48,655 bases of DNA. Origin: an uncultured Bacteroidales bacterium (lineage in GTDB: Bacteria > Bacteroidota > Bacteroidia > Bacteroidales > UBA1402). The first letter of the stretch is position 1. Each line of letters starts with the position of its first letter. The translations under genes and the position numbers were made by a program. Under the pieces are notes generated by a model that made no database searches, was not told where the DNA came from, and worked only from the letters and a program-made list of their open reading frames with translations. Location of the stretch: assembly GCA_964522065.1 (NCBI GenBank), contig CAZFUO010000003.1, positions 1 to 48,655 on the forward strand, given 5' to 3'. Below are positions 30,627 to 30,776 of this stretch, piece after piece.

Positions 30627-30776
30627 ATGGAGAACCATAAAATTGTTGACAGAAAAATGCTGGCATCAATAACCGGAGGTTGTACACCGGTAAAAGATGA
30701 ATTTCCTGTTCCTTTTTTAGAACAAGAAAGAGTCAGCATACAGGAGATGATAAGACGACTTAAAATTATCCATTGA
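30627..30776 (+). CDS. second double-glycine-leader peptide B (49 codons, not in the ORF track)
   Basis: My own translation gives MENHKIVDRKMLASITGG|CTPVKDEFPVPFLEQERVSIQEMIRRLKIIH*. It starts 11 nt after the peptide A stop. The L-x-x-I-x-G-G leader end is typical of cargo for C39-ABC exporters. Confidence 0.6.
   Translation: MENHKIVDRKMLASITGGCTPVKDEFPVPFLEQERVSIQEMIRRLKIIH

Follow-up and report, generated by a model that had tools for sequence, protein, structure and literature searches.

The contig analysed here, a stretch of 48,655 nucleotides from an uncultured Bacteroidales bacterium (the window), carries a class II lanthipeptide cluster in which a frame of only 49 codons, ORF2, lies between the precursor gene pepA and the synthetase gene lanM. 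The question raised by this locus is whether such a small frame is a gene at all and, if it is, whether its product is a second lanthipeptide, a signal, a bacteriocin or a partner of the lantibiotic encoded next to it. The frame had first been picked out from the letters of the DNA, and its position, strand and translation proved to be exact (Table 1), as did the distances given for it, 11 nt from the end of pepA and 51 nt to the first ATG of lanM; in gene calls on identical contigs LanM starts at 30834, two codons past this ATG. ORF2 is not hidden, as the original prediction had it, since public records do call it and its relatives as genes, which bear the name 'hypothetical protein' where they bear any.

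Table 1. Position of ORF2, of the genes of the cluster and of two RNA elements in the window
Feature	Position	Strand	Description
Structured RNA in the 5' UTR of pepA	30326..30377	+	Hairpin with invariant GGCC loop, then H-type pseudoknot
pepA, class II lanthipeptide precursor	30400..30615	+	71 aa; 35-aa leader with QGG at its end
ORF2, whole gene	30627..30776	+	ATG to TGA; 49 aa, MENHKIVDRKMLASITGGCTPVKDEFPVPFLEQERVSIQEMIRRLKIIH
ORF2, leader	30627..30680	+	18 aa, MENHKIVDRKMLASITGG; V at -12, L at -7, I at -4, G-G at -2/-1
ORF2, core	30681..30776 (including stop codon)	+	31 aa, CTPVKDEFPVPFLEQERVSIQEMIRRLKIIH
Stem-loop in the ORF2-lanM gap	30790..30820	+	14 pairs; -20.9 kcal/mol, z-score -7.4; no U-tract
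LanM, class II lanthipeptide synthetase	30828..33671	+	947 aa; TIGR03897 over the full length, E 3.7e-215; DUF4135 and LANC_like
LanT, ABC exporter with N-terminal C39 peptidase (PCAT)	33673..35865	+	Peptidase_C39, E 4.5e-34; ABC_membrane, ABC_tran
Protein with one predicted membrane segment	35865..36371	+	168 aa; position and N-terminal motif in common with longer proteins elsewhere

The conserved content of the cluster is limited to pepA, ORF2, LanM, LanT and an accessory protein, and neither the window nor any of the related loci has an immunity gene, a histidine kinase or a regulator in its cluster. The core of pepA contains T-I-S-G-E-C and two conserved Cys, and the precursor matches the lacticin 481 and type-A lantibiotic families at sub-threshold level only. 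The protein encoded after LanT, for which no family match was found in Pfam or NCBIfam, is probably a membrane-fusion or accessory protein in shortened form, to judge from its position and its N-terminal motif. It has 168 aa in the window and 178-250 aa in some relatives, and in six loci (L014, L019, L020, L024, L060 and L065) the same slot is occupied by an HlyD-like protein of 430-472 aa with a similar N-terminus. Since the protein seems to be a shortened version of an HlyD-like one, export across the outer membrane may differ here.

A block of genes past crtI and crtB, some 2.7 kb downstream of the cluster (39039-46139, + strand), encodes three HlyD-type adaptors, a MacB/FtsX permease, an ABC ATPase and an outer-membrane efflux protein. 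Some bacteria are shielded from lipid II-binding peptides by MacB-like (BceAB-type) transporters, and it is possible, by analogy, that this block is linked to self-protection, its linkage to the cluster being known from the window only.

A coding gene with a double-glycine leader

That ORF2 is a real coding gene is, in our judgement, practically certain. Between the window and L001, a syntenic locus from a JGI metagenome, the two ORF2 sequences differ at 24 of 147 nucleotides, and 19 of these differences fall in third codon positions. The corresponding dN/dS is 0.058 overall, 0.017 in the leader and 0.093 in the core, and pepA gives 0.106 in the same pair of loci; at the protein level ORF2 is 90% identical between the two, and LanM 77%. 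Purifying selection on ORF2 was also detected in two other lineages, with dN/dS of 0.15-0.34 and 0.16, and the exact ORF2 protein is called on 23 assembled contigs. The original prediction had asked for the frame to be followed through syntenic loci in search of frameshifts or stops; ORF2 proved to be free of disabling changes of either kind, and all frames besides its own contain stops in the window or in L001, as well as in nearly all other loci. One antisense ORF of 61 aa (30599..30784, - strand), which covers all of ORF2, also has a low dN/dS (0.06), because its wobble positions fall on those of ORF2, and was rejected in view of the stops that interrupt it in almost every other locus, L001 included.

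The leader of ORF2 is likewise difficult to ascribe to chance. The two strands of the window contain 94 ATG-ORFs of 35-100 aa, of which just pepA and the adjoining ORF2 fit the PCAT-leader pattern, in which positions -12, -7 and -4 are hydrophobic and GG comes next; given that block shuffles of the window yielded just 0.04 such ORFs on average, the pattern is not a random one. It could still be argued that ORF2 is a frame left open by chance, or a copy of lanA in decay that no longer has a function, considering that the ORF is short, that no family model describes it and that it is absent from two related loci. This explanation is extremely improbable, because it does not account for the bias towards third positions, for dN/dS values of 0.06-0.34 in three lineages, for a frame that is kept even where LanM is only 37% identical to that of the window, or for the presence in ORF2 of a leader pattern that a single other ORF of the window shares.

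A second gene for a peptide with a double-glycine leader, as had been proposed for this LanM/LanT cluster, is therefore genuine. The double glycine occupies residues 17-18 of the window protein, and GG at -2/-1 is found in all 14 distinct leaders of the family, as are I or V at -4 and L, I or V at -12; position -7, a Leu in the window, is hydrophobic in only 4 of the 14. Hydrophobic residues at -4, -7 and -12 of a leader dock into the groove of the C39 domain of LahT and define the ComA recognition sequence (PMC6363468). The best solved relative of the LanT peptidase is LahT150 (6mpz, E 1e-19), with which the catalytic Cys, His and Asp motifs align, and ORF2 is very probably a substrate of LanT, as its sequence and context suggest.

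The leaders of the two peptides resemble each other only in part. The last 12-15 residues of the ORF2 leader resemble those of pepA (shuffle p 0.0002-0.003), while the conserved N-terminal MKTNxxIENWK of the pepA leader is missing from that of ORF2. A homology between the IENWK stretch of the pepA leader and the long leaders of the YAPxEDD subfamily was also considered and discarded, as it was not significant (p 0.57).

Core sequences and extent of the ORF2 family

The composition described for the core was confirmed in the window, where it has one Cys, at position 1, one Thr and one Ser, and comparison of the cores agreed with the view that this peptide is unlike peptide A and unlike the beta-peptides of two-component lantibiotics. 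The other traits ascribed to it did not extend to the family. Cys at core position +1, put forward as the headline feature, gives way to Y, F, I or K in other members; no more than 3 of the 18 sequences have Cys1-Thr2, and seven of the 18 cores have no Cys whatsoever. A charged helical core describes, at best, the subclade to which the window belongs, the remaining members being rich in Pro and Gly and non-helical in character. Nor did a strongly amphipathic character of the core find support, given that its best helical hydrophobic moment is no higher than that of shuffles of the same core (p ~0.3). For the window peptide AlphaFold2 proposes a C-terminal helix only, at low confidence (mean pLDDT 63).

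The 18 ORF2 cores are 26-40 aa long and contain 0-2 Cys at varying positions and 1-5 Pro, with a net charge of 0 to -5 and a GRAVY of -0.2 to -1.2, and there is no conserved Ser or Thr column among them. Two elements recur, an N-terminus of the form [YFC]-[AT]-P-x-[EK]-[DE] and a C-terminus in which hydrophobic residues are followed by H, Y or W (IIH, ICY, IYY, RYY, PWW, ILY), often with KK before them. The cores of pepA (12 sequences) have two Cys at conserved positions, with a third in one sequence, 5-9 Ser or Thr, no Pro, and the motif T-x-S-G-E/D-C, which is of the mersacidin/lacticin 481 type (PMC7268733). In loci where the pepA cores are 36-61% identical to that of the window, the identity of the ORF2 cores is 9-41%. 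It is likely, from these alignments, that no lanthionine ring is conserved in the ORF2 family. Since Cys at +1 is not conserved, a good part of the cores is Cys-free, and all of them are rich in Pro and hydrophilic, with a charge that ranges from neutral to acidic, the family does not seem to be one of lanthionine peptides or beta-peptides. No lantibiotic family model in Pfam or NCBIfam matches ORF2 or its relatives.

Related loci were gathered from the contigs of LanM relatives and from a scan of genome and metagenome collections with a LanM alignment, which was needed because a scan of the genome contigs with a single LanM sequence found nothing. In total, 14 distinct Bacteroidales loci have the same layout, pepA followed by LanM, LanT and the accessory protein, with LanM proteins 37-49% identical to that of the window, and in 12 of the 14 one or two ORF2-type genes are located between pepA and LanM. 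Several of these loci belong to one chromosomal neighbourhood, with Vut_1 and a 2-oxoacid dehydrogenase on one side, and crtI lies 3' of the cluster in the window, L001 and L013. Two divergent ORF2 paralogs are present in L018 (3562-3711 and 3747-3899) and in L020 (3608-3766 and 3811-3954). In L019 and L060 the cluster is otherwise alike and ORF2 is absent, pepA being followed by a hairpin and then by LanM; no gene that could be a partner of ORF2 is missing along with it. Because these two loci keep the rest of the cluster, ORF2 appears to be dispensable for making pepA. In one sublineage the pepA 5' UTR is immediately preceded by a gene for a TonB-dependent receptor in the same orientation (L065, 3458-5281; L066, 120-1943); it is not present in the window.

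Away from pepA and LanM no ORF2-type gene was encountered. In the LanM loci of Flavobacteriales, Proteobacteria and Cyanobacteria the precursors upstream of LanM are all pepA-like. An exhaustive search of 1.84 billion representative proteins with a family profile returned just nine family representatives, and no distant relatives emerged from this search or from a k-mer-indexed one; three long proteins that came up as additional HMM matches were dismissed, as they resemble only a short piece of the leader. Every member whose context was read sits in this type of pepA-LanM cluster. No model in Pfam or NCBIfam covers the family, and the matches obtained, to PF10439 (Bacteriocin_IIc, E 0.09), PF14406, TIGR01847 and TIGR03949, are sub-threshold and confined to the leader. 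The ORF2 family is small, previously unnamed and restricted to one clade of Bacteroidales class II lanthipeptide clusters. In the literature searched we found neither a description of the family, that is, of a GG peptide without Cys that is conserved in LanM clusters, nor a characterised lanthipeptide product from Bacteroidales, an order in which such clusters are rare, a survey having reported LanM in two of 1,136 genomes (PMC10352776).

RNA elements of the proposed pepA-ORF2 transcript

Two structured elements flank the pair of peptide genes. Upstream, an RNA of about 52 nt lies 25-70 nt before the start of pepA, and comprises a hairpin, the stem of which covaries, and a pseudoknot formed by CGGG/CCCG and a 4-bp helix. 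In the alignment of this RNA 94% of the cells are paired, compared with 79% in shuffles, and its covariation score was reached by none of 500 shuffles; in the second pseudoknot helix (helix 3) pairing is 100% and each of the four pairs shows compensatory changes. A covariance model found one match per locus in the window and in all 15 related Bacteroidales loci (L001, L012-L014, L016, L018-L020, L024, L032, L060, L061 and L065-L067), including those that lack ORF2, and none in 13 LanM loci of other taxa. A search of the region against Rfam gave no family matching it, and the element is a candidate for a new cis-regulatory RNA of the pepA operon. Further upstream, at 30278-30287 (+ strand), TTTACTTTGC is conserved ahead of the element in most loci, and we take it to resemble the Bacteroidetes -7 promoter box TAnnTTTG; promoter scans of the sigma-70 type are uninformative for this phylum.

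Downstream, the stem in the gap between ORF2 and lanM is preserved in the comparison with L001, a G-U to A-U change included, and the loop is different. In 11 of 13 loci, the window among them, a strong hairpin lies directly 3' of the last peptide gene, with sequences that are unrelated between lineages: it comes after ORF2 where ORF2 is present and after pepA where it is absent, and is lacking in L024 and L065, where the stop of ORF2 runs into the LanM start. The stem-loop of the window probably marks a transcript end or serves as an attenuator (stabiliser). The amount of precursor mRNA relative to enzyme mRNA is governed by hairpins of this kind in classical lantibiotic operons, and the location of the present one past ORF2 would therefore place ORF2 on the side of the structural genes.

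Possible roles of the ORF2 peptide

By sequence and context, ORF2 is assigned to the class of peptides with double-glycine leaders. It shares with the GG peptides of C39 exporters (class II bacteriocin precursors, ComC, BlpC and PlnA) the short leader in which positions -4, -7 and -12 are hydrophobic, a nearby gene for a PCAT that retains its catalytic triad, and weak leader matches to PF10439 and TIGR01847. It differs from them in that all its matches are sub-threshold and limited to the leader, in a core unrelated to those of known members and, as regards the bacteriocins and pheromones of the class, in having no linked immunity gene, kinase or regulator and in belonging to a Gram-negative Bacteroidales host.

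The neighbourhood of an alpha-like TxSxEC precursor, together with the GG leader, also recalls the beta-peptides of two-component lantibiotics, such as haloduracin beta, lacticin 3147 A2 and lichenicidin beta, and the acidic, Pro-containing stretch right after the GG of ORF2 is reminiscent of the linkers of two-step processing, such as the short GDMEAA of mersacidin that is removed in a second step (PMC9127955). However, beta-peptides have several thioether rings, an elongated hydrophobic core and, in most cases, a second LanM, whereas ORF2 has no conserved pattern of Cys, Ser and Thr, is often Cys-free, shows no sequence similarity to them and has a hydrophilic core, and the cluster encodes one LanM only. 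Given this chemistry, a pore-forming beta-peptide can be set aside.

Prochlorosins provide another precedent, in which one LanM is accompanied by several dissimilar precursor genes, some of them Cys-free (PMC11251773), but they have one long conserved leader, and the ORF2 leader is short and differs from that of pepA save for the last ~12 residues. With class II microcins ORF2 has in common the GG leader, a product that is probably unmodified, the PCAT, the membrane-fusion protein and the diderm host; its core, in contrast, is much shorter (26-40 aa), hydrophilic and Pro-rich, no immunity gene accompanies it, and the gene is always located within a LanM cluster.

We favour, with a probability of about 0.5, an explanation in which ORF2 encodes a prepeptide that is co-transcribed with pepA, exported by LanT, probably left unmodified, and accessory to the lantibiotic. 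Both peptide genes would be transcribed together from a promoter upstream of the structured 5' UTR and would be separated from lanM and lanT by the strong hairpin, an arrangement that is usual for highly expressed structural genes. The C39 domain of LanT would recognise the 18-aa leader and cut after Gly18, and the 31-aa core would be exported by LanT and the accessory protein, probably leaving the cell without modification by LanM. Outside the cell, our best guess is that the peptide acts as a helper, carrier or protector of the lantibiotic and not as a pore-forming beta-peptide, and we put forward the helper role for pepA only tentatively. An accessory role is favoured because of the shared transcript, the strict linkage, the divergence between lineages combined with constraint within them, and the dispensability of ORF2 for pepA. 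Counting against activity on membranes are the hydrophilic, acidic cores, and counting against an unmodified peptide is the window core itself, which begins with Cys-Thr, as does mersacidin. No precedent for a pair made of a modified and an unmodified peptide was found in the literature searched, and we know of none.

The main rival explanation, which we consider unlikely, is that ORF2 is a secreted inducer, processed by LanT in the manner of ComC, BlpC or PlnA, which reports cell density or controls the cluster. A signal would suit the combination of a GG leader with a PCAT, a mature peptide that is short, hydrophilic and not membrane-active, the fast divergence of the cores between lineages relative to those of pepA under strong constraint within lineages, the paralog pairs of L018 and L020 and the absence of an immunity gene from the cluster. 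Known GG pheromone genes, however, adjoin the genes of their sensors, and in no locus is ORF2 linked to a gene for a histidine kinase, a response regulator or any other receptor. Moreover, known inducers are short, cationic and amphiphilic, and the cores of ORF2 are neutral to acidic, with an amphipathicity no higher than that of shuffles; ORF2 also shares the transcript of the structural gene. ORF2 might also be read as an independent unmodified bacteriocin, of class II or microcin-like, that merely shares the exporter: class II microcins have the same layout, in which a GG leader goes with a PCAT and an accessory protein and the host is Gram-negative, and the leader is matched weakly by TIGR01847, TIGR03949 and PF10439. 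Such a bacteriocin is quite improbable, considering the lack of an adjacent immunity gene, cores that are hydrophilic, acidic and Pro-rich instead of Gly-rich or hydrophobic, and a gene that has never been seen apart from pepA and LanM.

It has also to be considered whether ORF2 is a second, minimally modified substrate of the single LanM and a partner lanthipeptide of pepA, carrying a mersacidin-type Cys1-Abu2 ring or undergoing only dehydration of Thr2 and Ser18. The gene adjoins LanM, and the resemblance between the leader ends makes recognition by LanM conceivable, as does the fact that some LanM enzymes accept Cys-free substrates, as in the case of the prochlorosins (PMC11251773). In addition, the window core starts with C-T-P and that of mersacidin with C-T-F, where ring A joins residues 1 and 2, so that a 1-2 ring is chemically conceivable (PMC9127955). 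Of the hallmarks of lanthipeptide precursors ORF2 displays adjacency to LanM, but its ring-forming residues are not conserved and no lantibiotic family model matches it. Relatives with Y, F, I or K in place of Cys at +1, the scarcity of C-T at positions 1-2, the many Cys-free cores, the lack of a conserved Ser or Thr position and a leader without the MKTNxxIENWK of pepA all speak against modification by LanM, as does a remaining core unrelated to that of mersacidin, and we regard this role as improbable. A Cys1-Thr2 ring made by LanM is possible at the window locus alone, and not as a conserved feature of the family.

Among the three roles that the original prediction had offered, that of an unmodified, co-exported peptide is the most likely. 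A more far-reaching proposal, which we hold to be doubtful, is that the family is a dedicated ribosomal, non-lanthionine partner of the lantibiotic, and would represent either the first mixed two-peptide system, composed of a thioether-bridged and a linear peptide, or the first peptide pheromone of Bacteroidales, in an operon controlled by the pseudoknot RNA of the 5' UTR.

Standard lanthipeptide mining would discard ORF2, because it lacks Cys, even though its dN/dS is as low as that of pepA, and its identity higher than that of LanM, between the two closest genomes. The locus also advises caution in the opposite direction, in that a small GG ORF beside LanM is not automatically a lanthipeptide. 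If it is a helper or a signal, ORF2 would extend the known repertoire of double-glycine peptides, and its role would show how a Gram-negative producer deploys a lantibiotic of the lipid II type.
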